Part shown: positions 41,409 to 62,700 of the stretch, in pieces
Layout of the letters: every line of letters begins with the position of its first letter
Position numbering within the stretch: the first letter of the stretch is position 1
Source: Chloropicon primus
Lineage: Eukaryota
Direction of reading: 5' to 3'
Assembly (NCBI GenBank): GCA_023205875.1
Contig: CP060765.1
Location: 1-64,000, forward strand
DNA length: 64,000 nucleotides
Position numbers and translations under genes: made by a program
Notes under the pieces: model-generated
Seen by the model: the letters and a program-made list of their open reading frames with translations, nothing else
Database searches by the model: none
What the model was told of the DNA's origin: nothing

Positions 41409-42545
41409 ATGGCGAAGACGGTGAAGACGATCGGGACGCACAGTGGGACGTTCCATTGTGACGAGGCTCTCGGTTGCTTCCTTTTGCGAAGGACGAAGCT
41501 CTTTGCGAATGCCAAAGTGACGCGTACGAGGGATGAACAAGTCTTGCAAAACTTGGACTGCGTGATCGACGTTGGCGGTGTTTACGATCACGGCAAGCAT
41601 CGTTACGATCACCATCAGCGGGGTTTCTCCGAGTTCTTCGGCCATGACGCGTACCACAACACCAAGCTGAGCAGCGCTGGTTTGGTTTACCGTCACTACG
41701 GGAAGGAAGTGATCGCGAGGGAGACGGGTCTGGATGAGGAACACCCGGACACAAACGTTTTGTTCCTTGCCATGTACAAGCACTTCATCGAGGGAGTGGA
41801 TGCGATTGATAATGGGGTCGAGCAGTACCGTGCCAAGGTGGAGGCGAAGCAGAGTAAGAGGCAGAGGACGGGGGGGGAAGGGGAAAGGGAAGGGGAAGGG
41901 GAAGGGGAGCAGGAGGAGGAGGAGGACGTGGACTACGAGGTGACGTTGGAGAAAGTTTACTTGGAGGGGACTGGGCTTGCTAGCAGGGTTGGGGCGTTGA
42001 ACGCGGCGTGGAACGAGGATGCGAGTGCCGAGGTGCAGGACGCGAGGTTCAAGGAAGCGAGCGAGATGGCTGGGAAGGAGTTCCTCAGCAAGCTCACTTA
42101 CCTGCACCGCTCTTGGCTCCCAGCGAGGGAGATCGTCAAGCAAGCGATGATCAGCAGGTACGACGTTGACGACTCTGGGAAGATCATGAAGCTGGACCGG
42201 TACTGCCCCTGGAAGGACCACCTGTTCGAGCTCGAGATGGAGGAGTGGAGGGACCACCCGGAGGGGGACATGCCTCGGGTTCTGTACTGCCTGTACGAGG
42301 ACGACAGGGAGAAGAAGTGGAGGATCATGAGCGTGCCGGAGCTCGGGGGAAGCGCATTCAGCCAGAGGAAGCCCCTTCCAGGGCACTGGTGCGGTTTGAG
42401 GGACATCGCCCTCGACGCCGTAACGGGCGTCCCGGGTTGCACCTTTGTCCACGCCGCCGGGTTCACGGGTGGTCACTCGACCTACGAGGGCATCGTCAAG
42501 CTCGCCCAGATGGCGATCACGGACACCTGCTGTTGCTGCCAGTGA
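41409..42545 (+). CDS. MYG1: MYG1-family exonuclease
   Basis: IGTHSGTFHCDEAL; DVGGVYD...RYDHHQRGF; KLSSAGLVY; DAIDNG; FVHAAGFTGG. Confidence 0.93.
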   Translation: MAKTVKTIGTHSGTFHCDEALGCFLLRRTKLFANAKVTRTRDEQVLQNLDCVIDVGGVYDHGKHRYDHHQRGFSEFFGHDAYHNTKLSSAGLVYRHYGKEVIARETGLDEEHPDTNVLFLAMYKHFIEGVDAIDNGVEQYRAKVEAKQSKRQRTGGEGEREGEGEGEQEEEEDVDYEVTLEKVYLEGTGLASRVGALNAAWNEDASAEVQDARFKEASEMAGKEFLSKLTYLHRSWLPAREIVKQAMISRYDVDDSGKIMKLDRYCPWKDHLFELEMEEWRDHPEGDMPRVLYCLYEDDREKKWRIMSVPELGGSAFSQRKPLPGHWCGLRDIALDAVTGVPGCTFVHAAGFTGGHSTYEGIVKLAQMAITDTCCCCQ

Positions 42546-42939
42546 TATGGCGAAAGACATCGCCGCAGGAAAGAAAATAAACAGTGATTTATAGATGGCC
42601 AACCACCTGTGACCAATAATCTGCACTAAGGCTTCACTTGGCTTGGCCTGCAAGTCGCGAGGATTCTCTTCCACAAGGTTCAGAAACTCTTGTGCGAGAT
42701 CCTTACATCCAAGTCTTTTCAAAGATCCTCTCTTCCCCCTCGTTACTCTCCTGAGCGTCTTGTTCCTCGCTCCCTCCCCTCCCCTTCGCCCCGGCCTCAA
42801 TCCAAGATCTCACGGCGTTTGTGGCTCACGATTGCCCTGCAGCAGCAAGCGACGAGGACGAGGACGTGGACGACGAGCGAGACAGAGACAGAGACAGAGA
42901 CAGAGACAGAGACAGAGACAGAGACAGAGAGCGTGAGTG

Positions 42940-44255: not shown

Positions 44256-47200
44256 ATGAGGCGCGGGACGAGCGACAGGGGAAGGTCCCTCTTCCTCTTC
44301 CTCTTCCTCTTTCTCTTTCTCTTGCTTTTCTTTTTTTGCGTCGCCGTCGTCGAAACGGCTGGAGTGGTGGAGGTTGAGGTCTACACCAACGCGGAACAAG
44401 GAGGAGTGGATGGGATCGGTGGAGAGGATGGAGGACATCCTCCTCCTCCGCCGTACTTTGGTTCGGTCGATCTGCTGATACGTAACGGGGGTTCTTCCTC
44501 CGTGGACCTCGGTGATCTCACCGCGCACTTCTTCCTCGGTGAGGACCCCTCGAACGCGCACAAGTACGACGGTTTGGTTTGGAGTGCCCTGAGGGAGACT
44601 CGCGAAGGGAGCTTCGACTTTGTGGAGGACGTGGAGGTAACGTTCACGGAGTGCCATGGGAACGCGACGTCCTGGTCCGCGGAAGCGGGGGCGAGGGTGC
44701 GCATGGACATCGCCTTTGGGAAAAGCCAACACCTTCCTCCCGCGTCTAGGGCCCTCGTGAGGACGAGGGTGACCAAGAGGGTGTGGCCGCGCGAGCCGCT
44801 GGACGATGTGTCTCCATGGTCGCATCTCCGTGAGCTGGCGAGTCCTGTCGTCTTCTCGGCCTTGGACTCCAACCAAGAAAGCATGGTGCACTTTGCCGAG
44901 AACAGGAGGGTCGTGCTGAGCGACGGCAGCGGGAAAATCCTGTGGGGGCACTACCCGTCGGGGTATGATGCCGCCAGGAGCTCCGGCGAGGAGCTGTGCG
45001 GGATGAAGAGGGGGGGCGGCACCTCCAGGAAGACCGTCGCGAATTATGCGAGGAGGAGTCTGCTGCAGAACTTCGCGCAGGAGGTGTACCTGCAGGAGTT
45101 TTCCCTGCCTTGCGAGGACATCGGGAGCGTGATCCGGATGGATTCGAGGTTTGACGAGTCGTTGCCTCAGCTTCAGTACGTGAAGCTGCTCATTTCGAAC
45201 GAAGGGGAAGCGCCAGCGAGTCTTGACGGCCTGAGGATCCCCTTCCCCTACAGGGAGCTTGGCGAGGAGCACAAGCTTGTCGCGGCATGCACCAACCCGG
45301 TGTTGCTCGGCTCGAGCATGACGAACGCTTGGAGCGACGACATCTGTGACCACATCGACATCACTGTCTCTGAGGACGAGTTCGTCGTCGAGTTCAAGAA
45401 CTTCACGCTCTGTCCGTACTGCAGAATCGACGCGTTTTCCGACGCCTTGTCCCTGTTTGCTGTGTACGATGAGCATTGGCAGCGGGTGCAGATTGAAGTT
45501 ACCCTGGGAGCCTCCAGCTGCGCGTCGTCTGGCAGCGTGGTCTCTGACCCTTCCGCGCACATGTCGACGCTTTCGGTCAATCGCGTGAAGATGGACCCCG
45601 GCAACTGCCACACCATGCTCAATGTGCATTACGGCGGAACCATCCTGAGCAAGCCAGAACTCAAAGCAAGTTCTGCGACCGAGTGCTGCGATCTTTGCCA
45701 CAAGGAGCCCACTTGTAACGTTTGGACCTGGTGTGACAGTTTGATCGGATGCTCGAATGGAGAGGAGGACAAGTGTGTGCTCAAGTATGAGGTGGAGCTC
45801 GAGCCAACAATTTTGAGCAAGGGCAAATACACGCCCTGGGCATCGGGCTACTTGGGGTTGACCCAAGAGCCTATGCGCGCACCGCCAACAACAGTTTCAC
45901 CAACGTACACCTCGATCACGTCGTCATGCACGTCTGAGATCTCGGGCTTGGCAGCGGCTTGTACGAACGGCAACATGGCGTCCTCGATGAGTGTATCCCA
46001 GTGCTGCCAGAGGATTGCCGAGACAGACAGCATGTGCTTGTGCAACAAAGATTTTGGGTTTGAGATGGCTGCGATGCAGGAATCTCTCGAGACTTTTTCT
46101 GAGAGTCAGTGTAGCCACATTCCCTGCGCCAGCAGTGCAATCGCTGCACCAATACAGCAGAAGTCTTTGGCAGGGTCTCCATTGTCCAGAAAGAGCGGTA
46201 CCGCCGCACAAGGACAGCAGGGGCAGCCTGCCAAATCCCAAGCCCAGGGCCGCGCGCCCTTGCTCCCCCCAAACTGCGGTTTGGAAAACATCAAGACCGA
46301 TCTCGTCATGGAAAGCAACAGCAATTACAACAAGATCTTCTTGGTGGGATCTCTGACCAACACCGCAAGGAGGAGCGTGACGCTCGGCGACTTCACGGTC
46401 CCTATATTCTTCAGCAGGGGCGCCAAGGGCTACGACAACAAGTGGTACAGGGCAAATCCAGATGAATTTGTGGTGGAATGCAAAGATCCTGTGATCACTA
46501 CGACCCAGTTTGGCACCGTCGAACGAAGGCGCATGAGTTGCGACAACATGAAGGTCACAGTTGACGAAGAAGGAATCCTTTTCATGCTCCGCGGCGTGGA
46601 GCTGTGCCCTGGATGCTCCATCGGAGGTTCACAAGAGATGCCTATGTGGGAGATCAGGCACGCTGCCAACTTTCCTTTGGACTTCATCCATATCAACCCA
46701 GCCTTGGCATCCAACGGCCCAATCATTGGGAAACCTTTCTGCGACACTTTTGAAGACAGTTTGGAGATTCAGGAGGCCCTTGAGATGAATCCCATGGATA
46801 TGAACGTCCAGCCCCAGGAAATTTCGGACCAGGTGTGGAGGGAGCCCTCCGACACCAATACTGCCCAAGATCTTCTGCTCGGTACTCCCACAAGCGCAGG
46901 AGGTTTGGCTGGCTCAGAACCGGGCATCGGCAATGCCGCTGCGCTCAATGTTGGGCAAAAACCGTATCAGACTGTGACCCCGGATCAGCTGCGGCTGCTT
47001 GCTCCCGGGCAAGCTGCCATGCTGCTTAAGGACATGCACCCAGCTGCGGCAGCTCAAGCTCTGGCTGGACTGCAGCCACAAGAGGCCATTCCCATTTTGC
47101 AAGCGATGTCTCCCGCTGACGCTGGGAAAATCGCAGATGCAATGCCAGGCCCAGATGTCGCTGACTTGCTGAGGTACATGCAGCCAAATGCTGCATCTCA

Positions 47201-50200
47201 GCTTGTGGCAGCAATGTCTCCCGTGGTGGCAGCGAGTGCCTTGCAGCAGCTTCAGCCTCAGCAAGCTCAGGCCATCCTTTCATTGGTGGATAACCAGCAT
47301 GCCACTAGGTTACAGAACGCGATGCCTCCAGCTTCCGCGAGTCCAGGCAGATTGTCAAGACTGCCACCTGCTCAGGCGGCAGCCTTGCTCCAGCAATTGT
47401 ACCCAGCTCAGGCCGCCGCGGCACTGAGGGGACTGACGCCTGCCCAGGCAGCTGCGATACTCGAGGTCATGCCCCCGGAGGATGCTGCCCAGATCATGGA
47501 TGTGATGCCCGGCGGGGCTGCTGCTGACTTGCTTGGGGCGATGGATCCGTACGCCGCCCAGCAGCTGTTTAGCAATATGTCTCCCGTTGTGAGTGCCGAT
47601 GCTTTGAGGCAGATGCCTCCGGAGAAAGCCAGTGCTTTGATGACTTCGACGTCTACTCCAAGTTCAAGACAACCCATAGGAGCAGGAACGCCCATAGTCA
47701 CATCGCAACAGCTTGCTGCGATGAGTCCGGCACAAGCGGCCATGGCGCTGAGGGGAATGAGTCCCATGCAAGCTGCTGAGGCCCTTGCCGGTCTCGAGCC
47801 ATGGCGGGCTGCCCCCATTTTGCAAGCACTATCTCCAACGGACGCTGGTCCAATCATGGATTCCATGCCCGGAACAGAAATTGCTGGCATACTGAGGTAC
47901 ATGGATCCTGCGGAAGCAGCAGCGCTTTTGGAGCAGATGTCTCCCGTGGTGGCAGCGAGTGCCTTGCAGCAGCTTCAGCCTCAGCAAGCTCAGACCATAT
48001 TGGGCCTCATGGACAACAGGGACGCTACGAGGTTGCAGAATGCGATGCCTCCAGCTTCCGCGAGTCCTTTGAGACTTTCGCGGATGAGCCCAGCACAAGC
48101 CGCTACCTTGCTCCAGCAATTGTACCCAACTCAGGCCGCCGCGGCACTGAGGGGACTGACGCCTGCCCAGGCAGCTGCGATACTCGAGGTCATGCCCCCG
48201 GAGGATGCTGCCCAGATCATGGATGTGATGCCCGGCGGGGCTGCTGCTGACTTGCTTGGGGCGATGGATCCGTACGCCGCCCAGCAGCTGTTTAGCAATA
48301 TGTCTCCCGTTGTGAGTGCCGATGCTTTGAGGCAGATGCCTCCGGAGAAAGCCAGTGCTTTGATGACTTCGACGTCTACTCCAAGTTCAAGACAACCCAT
48401 AGGAGCAGGAACGCCCATAGTCACATCGCAACAGCTTGCTGCGATGAGTCCGGCACAAGCGGCCATGGCGCTGAGGGGAATGAGTCCCATGCAAGCTGCT
48501 GAGGCCCTTGCCGGTCTCGAGCCATGGCGGGCTGCCCCCATTTTGCAAGCACTATCTCCAACGGACGCTGGTCCAATCATGGATTCCATGCCCGGAACAG
48601 AAATTGCTGGCATACTGAGGTACATGGATCCTGCGGAAGCAGCAGCGCTTTTGGAGCAGATGTCTCCCGTGGTGGCAGCGAGTGCCTTGCAGCAGCTTCA
48701 GCCTCAGCAAGCTCAGACCATATTGGGCCTCATGGACAACAGGGACGCTACGAGGTTGCAGAATGCGATGCCTCCAGCTTCCGCGAGTCCTTTGAGACTT
48801 TCGCGGATGAGCCCAGCACAAGCCGCTACCTTGCTCCAGCAATTGTACCCAACTCAGGCCGCCGCGGCACTGAGGGGACTGACGCCTGCCCAGGCAGCTG
48901 CGATACTCGAGGTCATGCCCCCGGAGGATGCTGCCCAGATCATGGATGTGATGCCCGGCGGGGCTGCTGCTGACTTGCTTGGGGCGATGGATCCGTACGC
49001 CGCCCAGCAGCTGCTGAACAACATGTCTCCTCTCGTGCGCGCCAATGCACTGAGGCATTTAGGCAATCCAAGCGCGGCTGGGGATCTTGCAGGGCAGGAT
49101 GGTCGATTTGGGCAAATACAGAATGACGGTGAGGTACCTATAGTGGATGCGTCTGCGATACACCTTTTTGATATCGAGAAAGCACAGCAGATAGGCACGC
49201 CGATGGACCTGAATGGCCTGACACAGCAAGAGAAGGACGCTTTGCTAGCCGAGCTCTTAGCAAGGGCTGGAAGGCCTGTTGGTTCCGTTGCCGAACAAAT
49301 AGATGTGGCAGTGGCCAACTCCGATCCCGTGACTCTTCCTCCTGGGGCGTTGGACGAACAAGCAAACGCAGAGGAAGAGGGCATCCTCATTGAGTTCTCA
49401 AGATGGGCCAAAAAGAGTGATTTGTGGGAAAAGGCTGACGCGTCAGAGTTTGAACTTTCGTCGCCAGACTACGTGCAGGGGGAAGCTGTGCTGGTTGATA
49501 GAGAAGATAGCATCGAGGCAAGACTCCCCACGAAAGTGAAATCGGTTACGCTGAAGCACAAATTGGATGCAGAGCTTGACCCTCGTACTCCCACTATTTC
49601 TACGGCGAGCGGCGAGGACTACGAGGCAGTGCTTATGGAGGATGCCACCCTGTGGCTCATTAAGGACGCCAGTTTCGACGACGTCGGGGATGCCATTGAT
49701 GGAGCCGAAGCTACTGGAATCGGTGGTGGTAAAGATGACACGGTGAGGCTTGTGAGCGACGTTTCACCCTTGCAGGCTGCGAGAGTTCTCGATTCGGTGG
49801 ATGATGCTCTCGCGGCCGACATCCTGGCGGAGATGCCCCTTGAAGATATTGCGAGGGTCATCGCATTGCTGCCTGCGGACAGAGCAAAAAGGCTGATCGA
49901 GCTGTTGCCTAAGGACAGGCAAGAGGAGCTGATCCCGTTGCTGGATGGGGTGGACGCCATCGCGTTTGAAGCCATAGCCGATTTCATGCCTTGCGAGTCT
50001 GAAAAATTCCAAGTGAGTTTGAGAAGCAAAGTGCTGAACGGGGGCACGCGGTATGGGATCACGGGGACCATCGAGAACCCCACCAATCAAACGCTTTCTC
50101 TCAAGGGCCTGGAGATCAGAGTTGGGCTCAGTCCCTGGGTGAAGGATGCCACTGGAGTGTGGGAGCGAGCCGATAACGCGGATTACACCGTGCGCTGTGC

Positions 50201-50783
50201 GTGGCTTGGGATCGGATCGGTGAACTTTTGTGACACGGCCAGCGTTGTGATGGAAAACCACACGGCTGTAATCACGCTTCAAGGCCAGCTCAGGGCCGGG
50301 GAGAAAGTCAGCGGGCCTCCTGACGGAATTCTCATGGAGGTTGGAAGGAGGGGAAGAGCCCTGGACTTGAAGAATTTGCCCCTGATCGGCGTCGCTTGCC
50401 CCGGCCAGGAGGTAGGCCAGAGCATGTCGAGGTTTGAAGCTGATCAGGTAGGCGCTGGAGACTTGGTGACAATCGATTTCTCGCCCTGGATGAGGGCCGC
50501 GGGATCAAGCACCTGGCAGCGAGGCAGTGAGGACGAGTTTTCGTTGTCCTGCAAAAGCGGCGCGGATGCCTGCCCTGGTGTAGGCCAAGCAACTCTATCC
50601 ACGTCTTCCTCGGGCCAAGCACTGGAGGCTTCCTTTGTCGCGAGTGAGCCTGTGGACATCCTCCTTACCGCGAAAGACGGCTCGGAGCTCGACTTCAGAG
50701 AGCCCATTGTCACGAGCGGGTTCGACGCTTCGGCAAAACTGGTGAACAACGGGACAGCGTGGGATATTCAGCTGTCCAAGTAA
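44256..50783 (+). CDS. Large putative secreted protein with a PAN/apple-like Cys module and long MgtE-N-like helical repeats
   Basis: ~2175-aa ORF; hydrophobic N-terminus; SATECCDLCHKEPTCNVWTWC...CVLK; repeats such as DAAQIMDVMPGGAAADLLGAMDP. Confidence 0.75.
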   Translation: MRRGTSDRGRSLFLFLFLFLFLLLFFFCVAVVETAGVVEVEVYTNAEQGGVDGIGGEDGGHPPPPPYFGSVDLLIRNGGSSSVDLGDLTAHFFLGEDPSNAHKYDGLVWSALRETREGSFDFVEDVEVTFTECHGNATSWSAEAGARVRMDIAFGKSQHLPPASRALVRTRVTKRVWPREPLDDVSPWSHLRELASPVVFSALDSNQESMVHFAENRRVVLSDGSGKILWGHYPSGYDAARSSGEELCGMKRGGGTSRKTVANYARRSLLQNFAQEVYLQEFSLPCEDIGSVIRMDSRFDESLPQLQYVKLLISNEGEAPASLDGLRIPFPYRELGEEHKLVAACTNPVLLGSSMTNAWSDDICDHIDITVSEDEFVVEFKNFTLCPYCRIDAFSDALSLFAVYDEHWQRVQIEVTLGASSCASSGSVVSDPSAHMSTLSVNRVKMDPGNCHTMLNVHYGGTILSKPELKASSATECCDLCHKEPTCNVWTWCDSLIGCSNGEEDKCVLKYEVELEPTILSKGKYTPWASGYLGLTQEPMRAPPTTVSPTYTSITSSCTSEISGLAAACTNGNMASSMSVSQCCQRIAETDSMCLCNKDFGFEMAAMQESLETFSESQCSHIPCASSAIAAPIQQKSLAGSPLSRKSGTAAQGQQGQPAKSQAQGRAPLLPPNCGLENIKTDLVMESNSNYNKIFLVGSLTNTARRSVTLGDFTVPIFFSRGAKGYDNKWYRANPDEFVVECKDPVITTTQFGTVERRRMSCDNMKVTVDEEGILFMLRGVELCPGCSIGGSQEMPMWEIRHAANFPLDFIHINPALASNGPIIGKPFCDTFEDSLEIQEALEMNPMDMNVQPQEISDQVWREPSDTNTAQDLLLGTPTSAGGLAGSEPGIGNAAALNVGQKPYQTVTPDQLRLLAPGQAAMLLKDMHPAAAAQALAGLQPQEAIPILQAMSPADAGKIADAMPGPDVADLLRYMQPNAASQLVAAMSPVVAASALQQLQPQQAQAILSLVDNQHATRLQNAMPPASASPGRLSRLPPAQAAALLQQLYPAQAAAALRGLTPAQAAAILEVMPPEDAAQIMDVMPGGAAADLLGAMDPYAAQQLFSNMSPVVSADALRQMPPEKASALMTSTSTPSSRQPIGAGTPIVTSQQLAAMSPAQAAMALRGMSPMQAAEALAGLEPWRAAPILQALSPTDAGPIMDSMPGTEIAGILRYMDPAEAAALLEQMSPVVAASALQQLQPQQAQTILGLMDNRDATRLQNAMPPASASPLRLSRMSPAQAATLLQQLYPTQAAAALRGLTPAQAAAILEVMPPEDAAQIMDVMPGGAAADLLGAMDPYAAQQLFSNMSPVVSADALRQMPPEKASALMTSTSTPSSRQPIGAGTPIVTSQQLAAMSPAQAAMALRGMSPMQAAEALAGLEPWRAAPILQALSPTDAGPIMDSMPGTEIAGILRYMDPAEAAALLEQMSPVVAASALQQLQPQQAQTILGLMDNRDATRLQNAMPPASASPLRLSRMSPAQAATLLQQLYPTQAAAALRGLTPAQAAAILEVMPPEDAAQIMDVMPGGAAADLLGAMDPYAAQQLLNNMSPLVRANALRHLGNPSAAGDLAGQDGRFGQIQNDGEVPIVDASAIHLFDIEKAQQIGTPMDLNGLTQQEKDALLAELLARAGRPVGSVAEQIDVAVANSDPVTLPPGALDEQANAEEEGILIEFSRWAKKSDLWEKADASEFELSSPDYVQGEAVLVDREDSIEARLPTKVKSVTLKHKLDAELDPRTPTISTASGEDYEAVLMEDATLWLIKDASFDDVGDAIDGAEATGIGGGKDDTVRLVSDVSPLQAARVLDSVDDALAADILAEMPLEDIARVIALLPADRAKRLIELLPKDRQEELIPLLDGVDAIAFEAIADFMPCESEKFQVSLRSKVLNGGTRYGITGTIENPTNQTLSLKGLEIRVGLSPWVKDATGVWERADNADYTVRCAWLGIGSVNFCDTASVVMENHTAVITLQGQLRAGEKVSGPPDGILMEVGRRGRALDLKNLPLIGVACPGQEVGQSMSRFEADQVGAGDLVTIDFSPWMRAAGSSTWQRGSEDEFSLSCKSGADACPGVGQATLSTSSSGQALEASFVASEPVDILLTAKDGSELDFREPIVTSGFDASAKLVNNGTAWDIQLSK
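47210..49012 (+). repeat. Intragenic 723-bp (241-aa) tandem repeat, about 2.5 copies
   Basis: Identical alternative-frame ORFs offset by 723 (47408/48131; 47801/48524). Confidence 0.92.
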
Positions 50784-51107
50784 CGCCCCCCCCTCGGACC
50801 TTTGTGTACAACAACAAGATTTTTTTCCTTCTCTTATTGATATGAACTTTGCTTGTAGTCTATTAGAGATTCTTCTTCCTTGTTACTTGATGGTGATGGT
50901 GTATCAGCCGGGGAAGGGTGAAAGAAAGAGAGATGGGTTGGACAAGAAAACGTTAAATTCATATACGTTTCAATGAGCTTTGTTTTTTTTTTACACTAGG
51001 GCCTTAGGCGGCGGCCTCCTCCTCTTCTCCTTCAGGCTTTGGTTCTCCATCCTCTGCATCCTCCTTGGCATCCGCAGCAGTCTTTGCCTTTGCTTCCGCT
51101 TCCTCCG
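50673..51107. repeat. Left copy of a direct duplication (end of the large gene, intergenic region, 3' end of RSP3)
   Basis: aaagacggctcggagctcgacttcagagagc...cctccg matches 53309-53774 apart from small indels and substitutions. Confidence 0.95.
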
Positions 51108-51261
51108 ATTTTATCCGAAAAAATATCTTTGTTCCCCTTGAAAAAATAAGCGGCCGTGACACCCTGAAGCACTGGGCGGAGTCTGGCCCCATCAAAGTGA
51201 CATCCAGGCGGGAGGCAAAGGTCAGCGCTGGGCTCTAGGACGTAAACCGCGTGGCATTCGG

Positions 51262-52839
51262 ATGAACGCTACTGCCGGCTCGCTCGGCGTCCACGACGCG
51301 GGCGGTGCGACGGATTTTGGCGCAGGTTTGAGCCTCGAAGGTGCGCGTGACAAAGCAAAGGAGGCGCTGCTCCAGTGGGAGATCGAAGTCTGCGCCGTCG
51401 CGGTGCTCATGTCAAAAAAGGGCCTGCGGGTTGTCGACGAGAGCCGCCGCCACCTAGAACTCCTCCCCCCAGATCGCTATGGGACGATCTCGTACTGGGC
51501 CAAGTGGGCGTGTGGCACGGCGCAGTTGTCGATGGCCGCTAAGATCTTCACACAAGCCGAGCTCGACGTGGAGCTCGGTGGCAGCGAGGGTGCGATGAAT
51601 GAGACCTCGCTCGGTCTGGTCCAGCCGGAATCACGGCGCTTCTCCGTCGGCGCCCACGTCCGCGTGCGCTCCGAGGCCGACTCTGTGCGTTGGCGCCGGC
51701 CGCATCTACGGACGCCTGGCTACGTCCACGGCGCGTGTGGTGTCATTGTGCGCGCCCAGGGCCCCTTCGCCAACCCGGAGGAGGTCTCCTTCTACAGTCA
51801 AGGGCCACGGAGGACCGATGCCCTCCTCTACACGGTGCGCTTCCTCCAAGCGGAGTTGTGGCCGCACTACACCGGTGGAGAGGCGGACACCGTCGATGTG
51901 GACATCTTCGAAGGCTGGCTTGCCGACGCCGAGGCCGATGACGATGCCAATGCCGGCAGCTACGACGGTGCGCCGTCTCTGTGGCGCGGCCGCGGCTCGA
52001 GCCTCGTGCGCATTCGCACAGCGGATAGTCGGAAGGCGCGGCGTGTTGGCAATGCCCAAGGCCACGTGCATCATCACTCGAGGGAGGCCGTCGAGCGCGC
52101 GGCGGTCGATCGCGAGGCAGCGCACAACAACAGGGTGGACAAGGACGGAGCATTCGCCGCCCTGCACGCTGCGACGGTGCGGCTGCTCGTGGCCAAGGGC
52201 ATCCTCGCACGCGATGAGCTCCGCGCGATGGTCGAGACGTTGGATACCATGGCGTACGGCCAGACGATGGAGGGCGCCAAACTCGTCGCGCGCGCGTGGT
52301 GCGACGAGGCGTTCAAGGCCCTCCTGCTCACGGCTCCCGCCAAGGCCATCGAGGCGGCGGGGCTCACACAGATCGTCGACGCGCGCGGTGGCATCGGCTC
52401 GACGCGTGCAGGCATCGGTCACCTCGAGTACATGGGCACAGCCTCGCGCGGTGCTCCATCGCAGGCGCTTGCGCCGATTGGCGACACGGAGCTCGTGGTG
52501 GTCGAGAACACCGACGAGGTTCATAATCTCGTCGTCTGTACCTTGTGCTCCTGCTACCCGCGCGCGCTCCTCGGGTTGCCGCCACGGTACTTCACCTCGC
52601 GCGCGTACCGTGCGCGTGCCGTCTGCGAGCCGCGCGCCGTGCTGGAGGAATTCGGGTGCGCGTTACGGCCGTCGGTTACGACCGTCCGCGTGCACGACTC
52701 CACCGCAGACGTCCGCTTCCTCGTGCTCCCCCAGCGCCCTGCGGGGACGGAGGGATGGTCGGAGGAGGAGCTGAGGCCGCTCGCGACGCGGGACTGCCTC
52801 GTCGGTGTCGCGCTGCCGGTGGTGGGTGAGCAGCGGTGA
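51262..52839 (+). CDS. Fused beta-alpha nitrile hydratase, cobalt-type signature
   Basis: Beta: GVHDAGG, SYWAKW, RFSVG..VRV, HLRTPGYVHG. His linker GHVHHHS. Alpha: GAKLVARAW.D..FK, VENTDEVHNLVVCTLCSCYP, VHDSTADVRFLVLPQRPAGTEGWSEEEL. Confidence 0.95.
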   Translation: MNATAGSLGVHDAGGATDFGAGLSLEGARDKAKEALLQWEIEVCAVAVLMSKKGLRVVDESRRHLELLPPDRYGTISYWAKWACGTAQLSMAAKIFTQAELDVELGGSEGAMNETSLGLVQPESRRFSVGAHVRVRSEADSVRWRRPHLRTPGYVHGACGVIVRAQGPFANPEEVSFYSQGPRRTDALLYTVRFLQAELWPHYTGGEADTVDVDIFEGWLADAEADDDANAGSYDGAPSLWRGRGSSLVRIRTADSRKARRVGNAQGHVHHHSREAVERAAVDREAAHNNRVDKDGAFAALHAATVRLLVAKGILARDELRAMVETLDTMAYGQTMEGAKLVARAWCDEAFKALLLTAPAKAIEAAGLTQIVDARGGIGSTRAGIGHLEYMGTASRGAPSQALAPIGDTELVVVENTDEVHNLVVCTLCSCYPRALLGLPPRYFTSRAYRARAVCEPRAVLEEFGCALRPSVTTVRVHDSTADVRFLVLPQRPAGTEGWSEEELRPLATRDCLVGVALPVVGEQR

Positions 52840-53085
52840 ACAAGCGCACGATGTGAAGAAGTGGCAAGTGCAACGCGACCTCAGACCTCAGACCTCGCTC
52901 TTGCGCGGCGCATCCTCTACCTTGGTGGACCGTCATTGACCCAAGACCAAGGCAAGAGCCTGACATAACCGTAGACACCGTAGACAGAAGACAAGGACGG
53001 ATGCTGCTGTCTTGTGTGGAAGATGGATCTCGGCACGGGCGGGTGCTGGATATTGCATGATCCTATGACTCGCGTTGTCGTGTAA

Positions 53086-53308
53086 TCCTCAATCCTGCTT
53101 GGCGATACCTTGGTGATGTGCAAGGTTTCGACCGTATTTCACATGACGGTCATTACGTTTGAGGCGCCCGAGCTGGAAGACCCTGACCTCAGCTTCCAAT
53201 ACAAGCGGGTGGTGTCCACCGATCCTGGCGTCAAGACTTTCCAGACAGGGTATTCTCCAACCACCGGCCAATACGGCGAGCTGCTGAAAGGCACGGATGT
53301 CGGATGTC
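53086..53308 (+). mobile_element. Truncated Fanzor2/IS607-TnpB-like fragment (RuvC-I region only)
   Basis: KRVVSTDPGVKTFQTGYSP matches the recalled (V/I)xxDPGxRTFxTxY RuvC-I signature; the frame is cut at the duplication junction 53309. Confidence 0.7.
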
Positions 53309-53774
53309 AAAGACGGCTCGGAGCTCGACTTCAGAGAGCCCATTGTCACGAGCGGGTTCGACGCTTCGGCAAAACTGGTGAACAACGGGACAGCGTGGGA
53401 TATTCAGCTGTCCAAGTAACGCCCCCCCCTCGGACCTTTGTGTACAACAACAAGATTTTTTTCCTTCTCTTATTGATATGAACTTTGCTTGTAGTCTATT
53501 AGAGATTCTTCTTCCTTCCTTGTTACTTGATGGTGATGGTGTATCAGCCGGGGAAGGGGAAGGGTGAAAGAAAGAGAGATGGGTTGGACAAGAAAACGTT
53601 AAATTCATATACGTTTCAATGAGCTTTGTTTTTTTTTTACACTAGGGCCTTAGGCGGCGGCCTCCTCCTCGTCTCCCTCAGGCTTTGGTTCTCCATCCTC
53701 TGCATCCTCCTTGGCATCCTTGGCAGCCTCCTCGGTGGCCTTTTCCTCCGCAGCAGCCTTTGCTTCCTCCTCCG
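53309..53774. repeat. Right copy of the direct duplication
   Basis: Matches 50673-51107; supplies the functional 3' end of RSP3. Confidence 0.95.
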
Positions 53775-54741
53775 CCTTGGCCTTTGCGATAGCAGCCTTC
53801 CTGGCATCCTCTGCCTTCTGCTGAGCGTCCAGCTTCTTCTTGAGGGCAGCCGCGACAATGCTCTTGGCCGTGTTGTACGATACCTCCATGTTTCCGAGCT
53901 GGCTCTGGGTCTCAGCAAGAAGCCAAGGCAAGAAGGTGTCCTGGACCTCCTTCTCCACCGGATCGTAAAAGTGCCCAGCCTGGTGCAAGTCCGCGAAGAC
54001 GTCCTCCACGACAGTGTCGAGGAACCCACGGGCGAAGGAAGACGCAGCAACCTTCTGCCTGACCTGGCCTTCCCTCTCCAACCTCTGCTTCTCCTGCTCG
54101 ATCCGCCTCTGCTTCTCCTCCTCCTTGCGCTTCTCGGCCGCCTCCATCCTTTGGGTGGCAATAAGCTCGGCATTTCTGATCTGCTCGAAGTTCTCCTGGT
54201 GCGTCCTCATGGCCTCGAGTTCCTCCTCTTCCAGCACCTCCATGAGCCCCTGCTCAAGCGTCTTGCCAACCAGTACCTCCAGTATGGGCTCGACCTCCAA
54301 GTCAAAGTCAAAGATCTCGCCGCTCTCTATCTGGGTCTCCATGTCCACACCCGTCTTCATCGGGATGAACCTAGGAGTCGGGGGCCTGTCCAAGAAAGCA
54401 TCCGTCTGCGTCGAGATCTCTGCCTCAGGCACAGTATCTGTGAGCTCCTCCAAGTACGCGTCCGTCTGTATATCCATGTGCCTCCTGCCGTCAATAGGCT
54501 CCGGAGTGCTCGCCCGCTTCAAAGTCTGGACGACTTTCTTGGGACGGCCAGTCGTCTCCATCAGGGGCTCCGCGGGGAGGATCTGTGCGGCGTACGTGTT
54601 TCCCCTCACAACACGGCGGTCAAACATTATGTTCGAAGGAATTCCACCCGGTTCATCACTCTCGCGGTACTTGGGCCTCCTGCGCGTGCGCACAGGCTGC
54701 GGCTCCGCCGCGTAAGCATACGTCTCCGTCGCAACAACCAT
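53650..54741 (-). CDS. RSP3: Flagellar radial spoke protein 3
   Basis: NIMFDRRVVRGNTYA; TPEPIDGRRHMDIQTD.YLEEL; TQTDAFLDRPPTP; FDFDLEVEPILEVLVGKTLEQ. Confidence 0.96.
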   Translation of the reverse strand: MVVATETYAYAAEPQPVRTRRRPKYRESDEPGGIPSNIMFDRRVVRGNTYAAQILPAEPLMETTGRPKKVVQTLKRASTPEPIDGRRHMDIQTDAYLEELTDTVPEAEISTQTDAFLDRPPTPRFIPMKTGVDMETQIESGEIFDFDLEVEPILEVLVGKTLEQGLMEVLEEEELEAMRTHQENFEQIRNAELIATQRMEAAEKRKEEEKQRRIEQEKQRLEREGQVRQKVAASSFARGFLDTVVEDVFADLHQAGHFYDPVEKEVQDTFLPWLLAETQSQLGNMEVSYNTAKSIVAAALKKKLDAQQKAEDARKAAIAKAKAEEEAKAAAEEKATEEAAKDAKEDAEDGEPKPEGDEEEAAA

Positions 54742-56306: not shown

Positions 56307-59300
56307 TCACGTCGAAGACCGAGTGTACTTTAAGACCTTGCTCTTCTCCAGCCTCTTCCTGACGGCTATGCCTACTAACGCGCTCCTCACGGAGTCGGAG
56401 ACGTCGTGGAGCTGCTTTGTAATATCAATAAGATCTTTCACCTTGGAGGCCTTGCCGAGCGTCTTGATCTCGTTGGAAAGAACTTGCAAGGGGTTCTGCC
56501 CGCTCAGCATCAGCATGGAGTACTCGGCGTTCCTGACCGAGTTGTGGAAGTTCCCGCAAAAGCTTGGGTAGAGCTTGTCCTCCGCTTCGATCTCCTCCTC
56601 GGTCGGGGCGATGACCTTGCCGTACGCCAAGTTGCGGAACTTGTTCAAGTGGATGGTGCTGAGGTCCTGCATGAGCTTGAGGTACATCTTGATCATGCTC
56701 GATCCGTGGGACTCCTCCTGGACCCTGTGGAGCAAACCCCTGAGAATGGGCTCGGAGCTTCCCGCGGTGTTGAGGATGGGGCTGATCTGATCGCTCAGCG
56801 AGGCGGCGTGCCTCTTCGTGATGACGGCCACCGCGGCGTTTCGGCTGTGAACCTGCGGAGACATGTCCTCCATGTTGTCCGAGCTGAAGAACACCTCCAT
56901 GTCCTCCAGGTCCACCTCCTCCTCCCTGGGAGGGGTGAAAAAGATTTGGATGTAGGCCCTGAGGATGTTCGACATCCTTACCGCGGCGCTGAAGCCCGTG
57001 AAACTGATCTCCTCGATGTCGTGGGCCCAGTCCAAGGTAGGGTTCGTGGTCATCGACTTGGCTTCGTTCACCAGCTTCTCAATTACGTGCAGAGAGGAGG
57101 GCGGGGTGGACCCCGAGGACTCGTCCACGAGCACGGCGGTGACCCAGAACTGCTTGAAAATGGTGTTGAAGTTCAGCAGGTTGTACTTGAGCCTCTCGTC
57201 CTTGGAGGTCCTCCTGATGTTGTTGTGCATCTCCAGCATCGCGACGCACTCCTCGAGCATCTCTTCGGCTTCCTTCTGGTCCATGTACCCGTTGTTGTCC
57301 TTGTCACAGAGCCTGAAGATGTCGAGAATCGCGTTGGTGAGGTGAATCTCGCAGTGGCGGGCTTCCAGGCAGAGCTGGTAAAGGAACTCGGCCTTCAGAA
57401 CCTTCCAACAGTACTCGCTGTCTCCGTGCCTCTGGTTGTATTGCTCCAGGGTAACTTCGTCCACGATGCCCCCGATGTCGTTGTCAAGGATGTCCAAGTA
57501 CATGTCCTTCTCGTCCTCCTCCACCGGCACGGAGATGTCCGTGATGCGCTCCTCGAAAATCTCCCTTGCTTCAATCGATCGCACGCCCAGAACCGTATCG
57601 GCAATGATTTCCGCCCTGCGCCTGCACAGCCACTCCGAGCTTCCTTCGTAATTCATGGAAGTGATGTTCAAAGCAGACCTCTTGTGGTGCTCCGCCTGCA
57701 CGAAAGCATCGATGGACGCGAGGGCAGCCACGAAGCGCGCAAGCACGTCTCCGCCCCAGTAGTTTGAGATCATGTTCCAAAGGATTCTGTGCATGAACTT
57801 CCAGTTCTTCATGTACGGCGTCTCCTCGTTGTCAATGATGTTCAAAATCGTGGAGCTCTTCGAGGCGTTGTCCTGCAGCTTGCTCTTCAAGGTGACCATC
57901 ATCGAAGCCATGTACTCCTCGACAATGGAACCGGTGCCGTACTGCTTGTGGAAGTACCCCAGGAACGCCTCGTGCATGTTCCACGCGGCCACTCGGAGTG
58001 CCCCCGCCATGCAGTTCAGTTTAACGTTCGTCGAGTACGACTCCATGTACTCGGAATTGAACGAGCTCAGCGAGTGGTCAAGGAAGACCATCGAGGTCAT
58101 GAATGTGAGTTTTTGGTTGAGAGTCGCGCTATGCTGCTGATGGTGCTCCACCAGGTGCCCGAGAACTGCATCGATCATACGGTTGAGCCATTCTCCACTT
58201 CGTGTCTTACCAAGGGAGAGGAGACCTTTCACTTTGCTCTTGTTTGGGCTCGCGGGTCCCTTCTCTTCCAAGGCCGTGGCCTCTTGCACTTGCGCCAGGG
58301 CAACCTTCAAGCGAGTGTCATGGTTGGCGAACCACTGTCGCCTGTGGTGTCCCAAAAACCTTTCCTGCAAGTCTTTCATCTGGGCAGCGGTCTTGAAAGG
58401 CGTCGAATCCTCAGCCGGCGCGGGTGCTTCTGGCTTTGCCTCCGGTTCCTGCTCGGGCTTCGCCTCTGGCGTGGCAGGAACGGCAGCAGGTTTCGGTGGG
58501 GGAGGCATTTCGTCCGCCATTTTCGCCATTGCAGCGATCTGAGCGTCCAGCGACATGGCAACCGTCTTCTGTGGTGTGGGGTTGGCCTTGACCGATTCCC
58601 TTCTCTTGATAACCTCGTGAGTTATCTGCTGATGGGTTTCCTGCTTCGTCTCAGCAAGCTTTGCAAGCTCTTCTCCAATCTTGCTTCGCCTCCTGAGCAC
58701 CGGTAACGCCCCTGCTATAGCAGTTCTCTTCGTTGGCGATCCCTCGGCCTTCTTTTGGCTGCTTTGCTCCAAGTAGCTCGAGAAGACGGACGTCCTATCA
58801 GGCGAGGTGCCCACCCCCAACATGCTTCTCCTCGTCGGAGAGGTTTTGTCGGCATCTAGCAAACTCCTGCGAGCATGAAGGCTCCTTCTGGCATGTATCG
58901 CAGGTTTCACGTTCTTGCTGAGCTCCTCGATGGACTTCACCCTGGAACTCCGCCTCAAGAGCGCCGACTCTCGATGCAACGGCTGCTTTGGCTTCAACGC
59001 TTTCTCCCTTGCTTCCGCCAAGTAGCGCATAACGAGCTCCCTCAGTGTCGCGTCGAGACCTTTCACGATTTCGTTCAGCTTATCTTCCCCGTTGATGTGC
59101 TTCAGGATGCAAGAGATGTTGTACGCGTCAATTCTCGACTTGGAAAGAAAGTGGACAGCCAGGCTGGCCGGGACCTTCTCCAGAATGTTTTTGGCGAATT
59201 CAACACCAAACTTGTTGTTATCGATCGCCGTGGTTGCCACGGTATGGTTCACTTTCATGTCCTGCGACAGAAGCTGCATCAGTGATATCGTGTCGATGGG

Positions 59301-61853
59301 GATGTTCATCTTTCCAATCACCTGCTCAAGCAAGGCAAGGCCGATTCCATCTTGCCCCTGACCATACATGTTGTCCAGCAGGATACGAAGCAGGGAGGCA
59401 GCAAAACTCCTCTCACGAATTTTCAGAAGAAACTCAGCGGCTCGGTGCATGTTTTTTTGCGCCAAGTTGAGCAATATCTTGGCGCATTGCCCCTCAACAT
59501 TTATGCTGTCATCGATGTCCAAGGTCGTCGAGCAAATGTGCGTCCAGGTGGAAGCTTCTGGCCAGATCTTCTTGGTCAAGGACGCCGTGCAAAGAATCAC
59601 ATTGGCCGCAAATTCGGGCTCGAACTCGAGCAGCAACTGGGACGCGAACAACTTCTGCTTCGCGTCAAAGTTTTTGTTGCTCTCGTTCAGCATCAGCTCA
59701 AGGATTGTTGACACCACCGACTCCTCGCATCGGCTCAAGATACTGGCGAGTTGCTCCGTTCCCTTTCCACTTTGAATCAAAAGCTTGATGGCACTCTCCG
59801 TGTTAATCCTGTTGAAGACCTCGACCCTCGCAACTGGATGAAGTCGCTCCATAGAGAAAACTGCATGCTTGTTGCTGTAACCCTCGAGAAGCTTCACCTT
59901 CTTGTGGTCCTCGACAGAACCCACAAGAGCAGAGGCAAGTTCCAGGGCAAAGTTCTGATCCTCATGAAGGCCTGTGATGTGCGTCAGGATCTTGGACACA
60001 ATTTCGGGCACCACGTTGGCAAAAATCTTCAAGCGCGTTGCGTCCTCCATGTGAAGAGAAGCGTTGGCAACAATGTTTGCATCCATGTGGCCGATCAAGT
60101 CTCCTGCACGAGCGTGGGGAAGGCTTGAGAGTATCTTGGCAATCTGTTCTGCGGTAAGCTTGCTCAGGGCTCCGCCGGCCACGTCAGATGATATCGAGGA
60201 CAGCAGCTTGTCAATCTCAGGAAGTGAGAGCTCAAGAAGCGATTGGCGGACCTGGCCCTCCAGCTCTTCAATGTTCCCTGACGTGAACATGTTGAGCTTG
60301 CGCTCCAAGTCACTTTTGTTCTTCTTCTCGATTGACATCTGGTCCACGGCTTTTTGAAGGTCTTCGGATATGTTCGCCGCAATCTTCAGATGGGCAATGG
60401 CCGTGTTCTTCTTCGCCACCTTCACGGCAAACTCCTCAAACTCCTTTAGTCTCTCCTGGTGGTCCTTGAGCTTCTCTTCCAAAATCTCAAGCTTTTCCTC
60501 CCCGGTGAGGTCAAGATCATCAAAGCTGTCGATGTTGTGGTCCAGGGAGAGCCGCTTCTTCACCTTTGCACTAAACGCAGAGCTCATCTTCGTTGACTTG
60601 AAGGCCGTGTTCACTTTGGTCACCTTCTGCCACCGTATATTCCTCATTCTCGAGTCCAAGTGGCTCTCCACTTGTTTCATCCGGCCGAACACCGTGTTTA
60701 TCCTCGCGTTCATCTTTGCCATGTCTTGGTTGGCCATGTCATACCGCCGTTTCGCATCTTTCGCCATCTCTTCCTCGAGGGAGGCCTTTTTGGACATGGA
60801 GTCGTAGAGGTTCGACTGTTTCCGGAGCCGGGGGGCTTCGGCCAGAAGCACCGAGAGCTTTGCATCGTAGTGGCTGATGACGTCCTCCAAGTGGCTCGTC
60901 CTGTTTTCAAAGAGGTCGATCATCTCGTTCCACAAGAAGCCCAGGACCGCGCACCTCTCTGCGCAGTGGGCACCCACCTGCCTGATCATGTCTGTCATCG
61001 CCAGAGCCAGAACTTGGGCTTGGGGCAGCCCCTCCCACTCCAGTGAGGTTTTGGACGTCAGGCTGTTCAACGACTCGAGCTTGGAAAGCCTGCTGGAACC
61101 CGTGAGGACATCTCCTCCATGCCCTTCCCTCAAAGCATCCAATGATTTTTGCGTCCAACTCGCGAGCTGGATGGTCTCTTTCCTCGACGAGGGCAGAGAC
61201 ATGTAGCTCGTGTTCAAGGAGAACGCCATCGCTGGATGGTCGGCAACAAGCTTTGAGTCGATGTCCCTCACAAAGGTGTAACCAGGCATCACGTTTGCAT
61301 TGATGCAAGGCTGGTGTCCAGGTACCCTTACTTTCATGAACATCTCACTCCCTTTCTTGACTCTCTGCGCGCTCGGGGGTGCGAAGGAGGGCCTCTCCTT
61401 CCTAGTGGAGCTCGAGCCCTCCTCAAAGAGCTCGGAGAAGCTGGAGAGCAATTGCCTTTTATCGACATCGTTTGCCGAGAAGTCCTGCCTGAACGATATG
61501 TCAGCCTGCCCAGTAACTCCGGCGTACATCATGGCGTTGTCGGAGCCCGAGAACTCGGGAAGCAAGATCGCGCGGCTGTCTTCCTTGTGAAAGTCTTGTA
61601 CCGACATGGCCTCCTCTTCACTCTCCACTACGTTCAAGCTGCTTTCATTTTTTGCCACTTGCGCCCTGTTCAAGCCATCCACCATGCTCTCCAACGAGCC
61701 ACCTCTGCTCGCTTCCGACCTCAGCCTCCGGGAGCCGGGGCTCACTTCGTGCCTCAGCAGGCTCTCCGGGAGCTGCCCCTTCCGCCTTGCCAGCGCCGGG
61801 AACCTCCTCGAGGTGTCAGAGACCGTCCACGAGGACGGCGTCGAGGGAGGCAT
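56307..61853 (-). CDS. Large coiled-coil protein with an axonemal dynein light chain-like motif, helical repeats and an EF-hand
   Basis: 1848-aa ORF; MIRQVGAHCAERCAVL resembles the IRQV..C.ERG.LL motif; EF-hand DKDNNGYMDQKE. Confidence 0.7.
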   Translation of the reverse strand: MPPSTPSSWTVSDTSRRFPALARRKGQLPESLLRHEVSPGSRRLRSEASRGGSLESMVDGLNRAQVAKNESSLNVVESEEEAMSVQDFHKEDSRAILLPEFSGSDNAMMYAGVTGQADISFRQDFSANDVDKRQLLSSFSELFEEGSSSTRKERPSFAPPSAQRVKKGSEMFMKVRVPGHQPCINANVMPGYTFVRDIDSKLVADHPAMAFSLNTSYMSLPSSRKETIQLASWTQKSLDALREGHGGDVLTGSSRLSKLESLNSLTSKTSLEWEGLPQAQVLALAMTDMIRQVGAHCAERCAVLGFLWNEMIDLFENRTSHLEDVISHYDAKLSVLLAEAPRLRKQSNLYDSMSKKASLEEEMAKDAKRRYDMANQDMAKMNARINTVFGRMKQVESHLDSRMRNIRWQKVTKVNTAFKSTKMSSAFSAKVKKRLSLDHNIDSFDDLDLTGEEKLEILEEKLKDHQERLKEFEEFAVKVAKKNTAIAHLKIAANISEDLQKAVDQMSIEKKNKSDLERKLNMFTSGNIEELEGQVRQSLLELSLPEIDKLLSSISSDVAGGALSKLTAEQIAKILSSLPHARAGDLIGHMDANIVANASLHMEDATRLKIFANVVPEIVSKILTHITGLHEDQNFALELASALVGSVEDHKKVKLLEGYSNKHAVFSMERLHPVARVEVFNRINTESAIKLLIQSGKGTEQLASILSRCEESVVSTILELMLNESNKNFDAKQKLFASQLLLEFEPEFAANVILCTASLTKKIWPEASTWTHICSTTLDIDDSINVEGQCAKILLNLAQKNMHRAAEFLLKIRERSFAASLLRILLDNMYGQGQDGIGLALLEQVIGKMNIPIDTISLMQLLSQDMKVNHTVATTAIDNNKFGVEFAKNILEKVPASLAVHFLSKSRIDAYNISCILKHINGEDKLNEIVKGLDATLRELVMRYLAEAREKALKPKQPLHRESALLRRSSRVKSIEELSKNVKPAIHARRSLHARRSLLDADKTSPTRRSMLGVGTSPDRTSVFSSYLEQSSQKKAEGSPTKRTAIAGALPVLRRRSKIGEELAKLAETKQETHQQITHEVIKRRESVKANPTPQKTVAMSLDAQIAAMAKMADEMPPPPKPAAVPATPEAKPEQEPEAKPEAPAPAEDSTPFKTAAQMKDLQERFLGHHRRQWFANHDTRLKVALAQVQEATALEEKGPASPNKSKVKGLLSLGKTRSGEWLNRMIDAVLGHLVEHHQQHSATLNQKLTFMTSMVFLDHSLSSFNSEYMESYSTNVKLNCMAGALRVAAWNMHEAFLGYFHKQYGTGSIVEEYMASMMVTLKSKLQDNASKSSTILNIIDNEETPYMKNWKFMHRILWNMISNYWGGDVLARFVAALASIDAFVQAEHHKRSALNITSMNYEGSSEWLCRRRAEIIADTVLGVRSIEAREIFEERITDISVPVEEDEKDMYLDILDNDIGGIVDEVTLEQYNQRHGDSEYCWKVLKAEFLYQLCLEARHCEIHLTNAILDIFRLCDKDNNGYMDQKEAEEMLEECVAMLEMHNNIRRTSKDERLKYNLLNFNTIFKQFWVTAVLVDESSGSTPPSSLHVIEKLVNEAKSMTTNPTLDWAHDIEEISFTGFSAAVRMSNILRAYIQIFFTPPREEEVDLEDMEVFFSSDNMEDMSPQVHSRNAAVAVITKRHAASLSDQISPILNTAGSSEPILRGLLHRVQEESHGSSMIKMYLKLMQDLSTIHLNKFRNLAYGKVIAPTEEEIEAEDKLYPSFCGNFHNSVRNAEYSMLMLSGQNPLQVLSNEIKTLGKASKVKDLIDITKQLHDVSDSVRSALVGIAVRKRLEKSKVLKYTRSST

Positions 61854-62466
61854 AGCAGGGACAGGGAACAGAAGCTGCCAAAAGAGAGAGAGAGCCAGGG
61901 AAGAAGGTCAGGAAACTTGGTCCGGGTATTGCAACGGGTTCCATCGTCTTACCTCATTCAAATGTTGCTTCCTGTATGCCGAAGTGGCGTCCGTGTCCGT
62001 CCCAGTCAGAAGGTCTCTCCTTGAGCGTCCCGTTGTAGAAGAGTACTGGGACAGTTGGCCTGCAAGGAATGTAGGCAGAGGAAAGAAGCAAAAGCGCGTG
62101 GGAGAAAGGTACAAGTCAGAGACGGATTCAATCCAATTCATGGTAAAAACCAAACTCTGTTGGAATGTCTTTGCACACAACCTTCCCCATGCTCTGCAGG
62201 ACTTACTTGTGGAGGCCTGGCCCAGACTCCTTTGACTGGGATACCTCTGTCCGTCCATATCGTGTCACGCGTCCAGTCCCTCGCTTTGGTCTTCTAGTGA
62301 ATGTATGTTTCTGTGGTACCTGAATCCCAATGGTCCTTCTCCTTGTGTTGTGTCTCGTTGTGCCGCGCTCCTCCTCATGCCAAGGGTCTCGTCCTGCGGC
62401 CTTCCTCCATCCTCCTCTCCTCTCTCCTCTTCTCCATCGGTCAATTGACGCAGTTCCAGTGCAATA

Positions 62467-62700
62467 CCATTTCCTTAACCAAAACCAAGGTGCATCCCAT
62501 TTCCTTAAGTAAAACCAAGGTGCATCCCATTTTCTTAACCAAAACTAAGGTGAATCCCATTTCCTTAAGTAAAACCAAGGTGCATCCCATTTCCTTAAGT
62601 AAAACCAAGGTGCATCCTATTTCCTTAAGTAAAACCAAGGTGAATCCCATTTCCTTAAGTAAAACCAAGGTGCATCCCATTTCCTTAAGTAAAACCAAGG
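62467..62700. repeat. 30-bp minisatellite, about 8 copies
   Basis: ccatttccttaagtaaaaccaaggtgcatc repeated head-to-tail with few substitutions and no spacers. Confidence 0.95.

Follow-up and report, generated by a model that had tools for sequence, protein, structure and literature searches.

How did the green picoalga Chloropicon primus come to carry a single-chain, cobalt-type nitrile hydratase (NHase), and what might this enzyme do there? We addressed these questions in a window of 64,000 nucleotides, the first of contig CP060765.1 (assembly GCA_023205875.1), in which the gene occupies positions 51262-52839 of the forward strand. The gene has been annotated before, and a complete entry derived from transcripts is available; what is new here is the anatomy of its insertion, namely the insert, the duplication of host DNA around it and a Fanzor2 scrap at the right junction. 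We conclude with fair confidence that the gene is real and likely encodes a functional fused NHase, that it likely came recently from another alga, and that its arrival left a readable insertion scar. Within the accessible literature, no paper mentioned both Chloropicon and nitrile hydratase, and the accessible main texts of the C. primus genome papers (PMC12301720, PMC6731263) do not contain the string 'nitril'.

Results

A fused nitrile hydratase with an intact cobalt site

The reading frame is open from ATG to TGA over 525 amino acids and carries NHase_beta_N (residues 9-103), NHase_beta_C (123-221) and NHase_alpha (299-517), all above the curated Pfam cut-offs. The beta domain thus lies N-terminal to the alpha domain within one ORF, which is the arrangement of eukaryotic fused NHases, and the intact beta-then-alpha single chain described in an earlier note on this DNA is borne out. 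That note had also called the gene intronless; the ORF is indeed uninterrupted, but this is not diagnostic, as host genes average fewer than one intron each (PMC12301720) and a relative on contig L001 is uninterrupted as well. Both the alpha and beta NCBIfam scores fall under the bacterial cut-offs. The predicted structure is that of an NHase fold (pLDDT 78, pTM 0.74), with matches at E 5e-14 for the alpha part and E 2e-8 for the beta part.

The metal-binding motif CTLCSCY is encoded at 52537-52557 (forward strand), as the earlier note had reported, and belongs to a VCTLCSCY stretch (residues 425-432) typical of cobalt-type NHases. In an alignment of 85 fused proteins, C426, C429, S430 and C431 are invariant, and R62, Y78 and R150, the conserved beta arginines and tyrosine, are each kept in 84 of the 85; W82 and R434 are the further residues that we mark in this chain. 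R62 aligns with beta-Arg56 of the Fe enzyme, which is essential according to a review (PMC7193024), and R150 with the second beta arginine. The linker between the domains contains GHVHHHS (52060-52080, forward strand), so that a histidine-containing linker is present; 'His-rich', however, overstates it, since its 52 residues hold just 4 histidines, against 6-17 in seven of the eight closest relatives (among the 120 best of 519 hits). Histidine counts of 2-17 are on record for eukaryotic fused NHases, and the linker is dispensable in Monosiga (PMC7193024, PMC3323583).

Changes on the branch leading to the window NHase shun conserved columns (4 of 25, versus 58% expected, p 2e-5). This branch (0.10 per site) is much longer than the divergence between the two copies of the duplication (2 substitutions in 401 bp), and much of it, hence most of the selection measured, may therefore predate the insertion. 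The 18 window ORFs scanned yielded no activator-type Pfam family, in agreement with the earlier note; this is nevertheless unremarkable, as eukaryotic NHases normally lack an activator (PMC7193024).

The gene lies between two copies of host DNA

The NHase gene sits in an insert of about 2.2 kb that is flanked by two direct copies, of about 400 bp each, of a host region carrying the shared 3' ends of two convergent genes. The left copy (50673-51073, 401 bp) comprises the end of a host gene of 2175 amino acids with MgtE_N-like repeats and a PAN domain (44256-50783, forward strand), of which the last 111 bp and the stop fall in this copy, followed by the shared 3' intergenic region and the last codons of the gene for radial spoke protein 3 (RSP3). 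The right copy (53309-53719, 411 bp) holds the stop and 3' region of the intact RSP3 gene (53650-54741, reverse strand). The two copies differ by 2 substitutions and 2 indels (4 and 6 nt). Both host genes are whole: the gene of 2175 amino acids has its end in the left copy, and RSP3 uses the right one. The duplication gave each its own stop and 3' end, and the insertion would thus have been harmless.

The left junction can be placed approximately at 51074-51107, where a low-complexity remnant of the RSP3 tail (reverse strand), in frame and more diverged, is followed by 154 bp of non-host sequence (51108-51261, forward strand), a probable 5' UTR and promoter. Downstream of the NHase gene lie a short region with short direct microrepeats (52840-52990, forward strand), which is a probable 3' UTR covered without interruption by contigs labelled as RNA, and the TnpB/Fanzor2 scrap described below. 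Comparison of the 5' segment with the region upstream of the L001 relative gave a match of 19/23; in one of four tests, 12 of 300 shuffles did as well, and the match was given no weight.

We propose that the foreign DNA would have entered by break repair, or that a circular molecule which included about 400 bp of host DNA integrated by a single crossover; the insertion would have survived as the duplication spared both host genes, and the same duplication likely supplies the new gene with a host 3' end.

The window holds eukaryotic genes, for example those for RSP3, kinesin and Ufd2. RSP3 is itself flanked by two large genes with MgtE_N-like repeats (44256-50783 and 56307-61853), the first of which contains internal repeats of about 720 bp. 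Positions 1-1091 of the window are taken up by a 7-nt telomere repeat, present 84 times, and then by a 198-bp subtelomeric repeat in 2.5 copies; tandem arrays lie at 32213-32554 (period 87 bp), 34527-34890 (93 bp) and 62459-62700 (30 bp).

The insert in reads, assemblies and metagenomes

Contamination and misassembly are unlikely. At 90% the protein clusters with one other protein, P0261, a nitrile hydratase of Chloropicon primus from NCBI, MMETSP and EukProt sources, encoded on a 633-kb contig, from which it differs at two residues (111 and 290); the two differences, relative to P0261 and to runs X1, X4 and X5 alike, both change the amino acid. A single contig of DNA run X1 covers 51044-53338 at a depth of 132, as compared to 129.5 and 153 on the flanks and 214, about 1.5 times higher, on the collapsed duplicate; the read-depth comparison that the earlier note had proposed as a check for a contaminant hence gives contamination no support. 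Two runs guessed to be RNA yielded uninterrupted contigs (51131-53338 and 51162-53338), and metagenome runs from four studies contained pieces of the insert with 0-1 differences in all four, shorter metagenome pieces of low identity having been assigned to other organisms.

The idea that the gene is a contaminant or a product of misassembly draws on the repeats that flank the insert and on the X1, X4 and X5 contigs, which extend 30 letters beyond the right junction and miss our rule for bridging by one letter. Set against this, the depth over the NHase gene equals that of the flanks, record 28 of run X9 bridges the right junction, reaching 82 and 69 letters to either side, two JGI proteins read through it and a second assembly carries the gene, so that we give this idea almost no probability. 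The joint of an empty site occurred in none of 8 runs, which shows nothing on absence. Runs X4, X5 and X6 (RNA by guess) gave no cover of RSP3, and X6 none of the NHase ORF; this was not used as evidence.

Codon usage and composition

The foreign codon usage seen by eye in the earlier note holds for arginine and alanine when the gene is compared to a host pool of 14 Pfam-supported ORFs, from which the CGN-rich ORFs 41142-42560 and 12931-13965, which have no Pfam support, were dropped. CGN codons make up 44/48 of the arginine codons, versus 239/737 in the pool (Fisher p 1.4e-16), and GCG codons 35/74 of the alanine codons, versus 375/1250 (p 0.003). The overall codon deviation is 0.36, versus at most 0.20 for the 14 host genes, and none of 229 windows of equal size taken from the rest of the 64 kb reaches its GC content (0.676) or CpG observed/expected (1.25), the highest values there being 0.639 and 1.08. 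GC3, however, is not foreign (0.81, within the host range of 0.65-0.90), CGN provides over half of the arginine codons in 4 of the 14 host genes, and several host genes equal the GCG share. ORFs on the opposite strand show host-like codon use.

When codons were scored for their fit to two genes neighbouring the L001 relative versus the host, the NHase gene gave +0.07 per codon and all 14 host genes -0.07 to -0.41; the Fanzor scrap scored as host-like (-0.19 over 61 codons). Near the chromosome end, genes for GT25, sulfotransferase and GT47 proteins (2041-8405) use CGN for 54-63% of their arginines, above most host genes, and may be older acquisitions.

Relatives and origin

Searches gave 519 relatives, of which the 120 best were taken, and LG+G4 trees were calculated from 68 (quick) and 38 (careful) rows; the frameshifted P0009, P0013 and P0014 were excluded, three rows were cut back to the NHase portion, and the set included no Emiliania sequence. 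In the quick tree, the 59 fused NHase rows stand apart from 9 bacterial alpha rows (SH-aLRT 99), which places the window protein with the eukaryotic enzymes; the best alpha-only match among the 120 best shorter hits is about 50% identical to it. In the careful tree, the window NHase pairs with P0002 (100/99; 86% identity over 455 columns) within a marine clade of 9 rows (99/98) whose members are 68-86% identical to it, and falls in a distinct, long-stemmed subclade (100/100). The core-chlorophyte NHases form a separate clade (100/99), and the quick tree agrees. BLAST identities among the 120 best of 519 hits run in parallel, with 36-51% for green algal homologues and 58-79% for the near relatives.

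The only named row of the marine clade is Phaeocystis cordata, a partial, transcriptome-style entry that could be contaminated. The gene was likely transferred from a non-green eukaryote, and the donor was probably a haptophyte, a placement that leans on this one row. Among the accessible papers listed for NHase together with haptophytes and transfer, none mentioned the enzyme. The L001 relative is an uninterrupted gene on a eukaryotic contig of 70% GC, next to genes for a chloride channel, an F-box protein and an EF-hand protein. In File S1 of PMC12301720, a table of orthogroups specific to C. primus with respect to C. roscoffensis, nitrile hydratase is listed for both sequenced strains, and it is this orthogroup table that defines the absence from C. 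roscoffensis referred to here.

Several relatives deserve mention in their own right. P0003 and its cluster mates P0124-P0127 carry a C-terminal Abhydrolase_3 domain (HSL-like; 885-888 amino acids in 5/5 members), and if this domain is amidase-like, one chain would take a nitrile to the acid. In the near relative P0135 and in P0012, the NHase is followed by a terminal NUDIX domain (a candidate fusion or read-through). The NHase of Cymbomonas groups with that of the fungus Hyaloraphidium (97/98), and that of Symbiodinium with that of the diplonemid Namystynia (100/100), groupings that hint at further transfers of NHase between eukaryotes.

A Fanzor2 scrap at the right junction

Between the 3' region and the right junction lies a truncated IS607-type TnpB/Fanzor2 scrap (52990-53308, forward strand) of about 60-105 codons, which runs up to and including RuvC-I (DPG) and stops exactly at the junction (53308). 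The match is strong over 53122-53308 and weak upstream, with one in-frame stop at 53083-53085. A phmmer search with 57 scrap residues gave 39 hits at E<=0.001; Cas12f1-like_TNB, a TnpB zinc-finger family, was present in 9 of the 14 scrap relatives scanned, and a profile built from 26 hits of >=400 amino acids found the insert at E 9e-25 and no other significant match in the window. In Atlas clusters, OrfB_IS605 was assigned to 29% and 72% of members (scores 0.95 and 0.94). The scrap shares 60-68% identity with its best relatives, as compared to 22/52 residues by eye with the host's own Fanzor2* (four C. primus proteins).

Searches with the scrap in PDB, NCBIfam, viral contigs and a word-indexed protein collection returned no match, and a motif search of the curated Fanzor table (the accessible supplement of PMC10711439) gave no organism for its family. 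No guide RNA was found by Rfam, and a complete RuvC with zinc finger is missing from the scrap, which is truncated at 53308. We rejected 51098-51235 as a helix-turn-helix of an IS607 TnpA, given the lack of Atlas and Pfam matches and shuffle p >= 0.28.

An intact IS607 TnpA with a Fanzor2 of the scrap family occurs at 1902-4239 of L081, among RING-finger and YSPT-repeat ORFs. This 12-kb contig, filed in a Methylococcus MAG, was the sole match in the prokaryote collection and looks like a misbinned eukaryotic or giant-virus contig. P0273-P0312 form a Fanzor2-like family ending in a G-W-D-G motif. A public model, P0272 (72 amino acids, 53116-53400), joins the scrap to the end of the duplicated host gene, apparently via a predicted intron, and is probably not a real gene.

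The substrate pocket

R434 occupies the position of alpha-Trp116 of the Pseudonocardia thermophila NHase and of Arg136 of thiocyanate hydrolase, and the best PDB match for its segment is the W116R mutant 3vyh. Replacement of the usual pocket tryptophan by Arg434 suggests that the substrate may differ; it would likely move preference to small or polar nitriles. From what is known of the family, the enzyme would turn nitriles into amides at a Co(III) site with C426, C429, S430 and C431 as predicted ligands, the oxidised cysteines presumably being held by R62 and R150, and the amide would pass to a host amidase, freeing ammonium. Host amidases (K01426) are annotated in C. primus (PMC6731263). Supply of nitrogen from nitriles, which the earlier note had raised, is a putative role.

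Discussion

Our preferred account, held with reasonable confidence, is that the window carries a fused NHase gene in an insert of about 2.2 kb, that its likely source, in the recent past, was a marine alga outside the green lineage, probably a haptophyte, and that it encodes an enzyme with predicted cobalt-dependent nitrile hydration. The earlier note had argued for transfer from another eukaryote, and this is supported by the tree, the AU test, the composition, the insertion anatomy and the species-specific orthogroup table. Its implied surprise at a fused NHase in a green alga did not survive, as such an enzyme is also present in at least seven named chlorophytes (Myrmecia, Chlamydomonas leiostraca, Sanguina, Tetradesmus, Haematococcus, Raphidocelis and Cymbomonas). 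This breadth, together with the proposal that the fusion is ancestral to eukaryotes (PMC3323583), would favour vertical inheritance within Chlorophyta with odd codon use. That reading is nonetheless largely refuted and very improbable: forcing the window NHase and P0002 together with 9 rows of the core-chlorophyte clade, a group to which three rows were added after the first tree, cost 269.6 lnL units (p-AU 1.1e-62, LG+G4), so that the phylogeny with bacterial and eukaryotic enzymes called for in the earlier note leaves the window copy outside the core-chlorophyte clade. Widespread as fused NHases are in chlorophytes, this copy is not orthologous to theirs, and vertical descent also has to contend with the insertion anatomy and the foreign CGN and CpG content of the gene, its host-like GC3 notwithstanding. 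An older transfer into Chloropicophyceae, followed by a recent move to this site and loss in C. roscoffensis, is unlikely as well. It would make P0002 a sister green alga, and indeed P0002 could be another member of Chloropicophyceae; no other relative among the 120 best of 519 hits comes near its 86% identity, and the window NHase branch is longer than the duplication divergence suggests. Against such an older date, codon use and CpG are still strongly unlike those of the host, and neither the 120 best of 519 hits nor the 120 best shorter ones include another named Chloropicon protein.

Recent transfer leaves the question of the vehicle. That an IS607-Fanzor2 element, or a giant virus with one, brought the gene as cargo or cut the site is suggested by the scrap ending exactly at the junction, by its being closer to its best relatives than to the host Fanzor2*, and by the intact TnpA and Fanzor2 of its family on L081, eukaryotic or viral by its look. 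We consider this doubtful, however: a search of the insert for a TnpA remnant came up empty in 12 frames (best p 0.15), inverted repeats at its ends did not exceed those of shuffled sequence, and the target shows no short duplication; a 400-bp duplication is unlike IS607 and unlike the 5-nt target duplications that, with terminal repeats, accompany the host Fanzor2* (10.1101/2023.08.09.552727); four scans of viral contigs revealed no relative of the NHase, the scrap, the scrap family or its TnpA; and no Fanzor occurs in the 80 NHase loci compared. We favour the view that the scrap is a passenger or a repair patch, though it may also be a trace of the vehicle. As to chemistry, action as a thiocyanate hydrolase, and not as an NHase, is improbable. 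It would fit the arginine after CSCYP, a trait of thiocyanate hydrolase (gamma-136; R136 in the title of 3vyg) shared by R434, and the match of this segment to 3vyh. In thiocyanate hydrolase, a pair of pocket arginines presumably plays a role, the equivalents here being R434 and Ser61; the second, which we take to be beta-Arg90 at the Phe before the catalytic Arg, is hence absent from the window NHase. NCBIfam moreover favours NHase alpha (199.9 versus 164.1 bits), and an arginine at the R434 position is found in 27 of the 85 aligned fused proteins.

It is rare to catch a transfer between free-living eukaryotes of the plankton while its insertion scar can still be read. At this locus the two junctions are visible, together with a target duplication that left two host genes unharmed and a scrap of a mobile element, which suggests how a streamlined genome can take in a gene. 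A species pair with and without the NHase offers a test of the marine role of eukaryotic NHases, and the enzyme, one chain from an intronless gene, with a linker that is short by nature and an arginine in its pocket, is an easy candidate biocatalyst. The locus also warns that the patchy distribution of eukaryotic NHases reflects transfer as well as loss. At its boldest, the story would be that an IS607-Fanzor2 element or giant virus moved a haptophyte cobalt enzyme into a green picoalga, where the arginine pocket opens a nitrogen source in polar nitriles or thiocyanate that the sister species is without; we regard this as quite unlikely.

Comparison with known systems

The window NHase shares with eukaryotic fused NHases such as that of Monosiga brevicollis (PMC3323583) the beta-alpha single chain, the VCTLCSC site, a histidine linker and the lack of an activator, and departs from them in an insertion of about 40 amino acids in the alpha part, in CYPR after the motif and in its short linker with 4 histidines; its gene sits in a likely recent insert, and the protein belongs to the distinct, long-stemmed subclade. 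The NHases of the core chlorophytes Tetradesmus, Raphidocelis, Haematococcus and Myrmecia have the same architecture and come from the same phylum, but at 36-51% identity are not its orthologues.

The alpha fold resembles that of the cobalt-type NHase of P. thermophila (1ire, 3vyh; Foldseek E 1e-13, TM 0.76-0.78 by target) and the metal motif is the same, whereas the P. thermophila enzyme has two subunits, an activator and Trp116 where the window NHase has Arg434. With the thiocyanate hydrolase of Thiobacillus thioparus (2dd4, 3vyg) it shares the cobalt site and the arginine after CSCYP; that enzyme has three subunits, the presumed second pocket arginine is absent from the window NHase, and the family score is lower. 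Finally, the scrap is of TnpB/Fanzor2 type around RuvC-I, like the IS607 Fanzor2 and C. primus Fanzor2* proteins (PMC10711439), but it spans about 60-105 codons, is of another family than the four host proteins and has neither their terminal repeats nor their 5-nt duplication.
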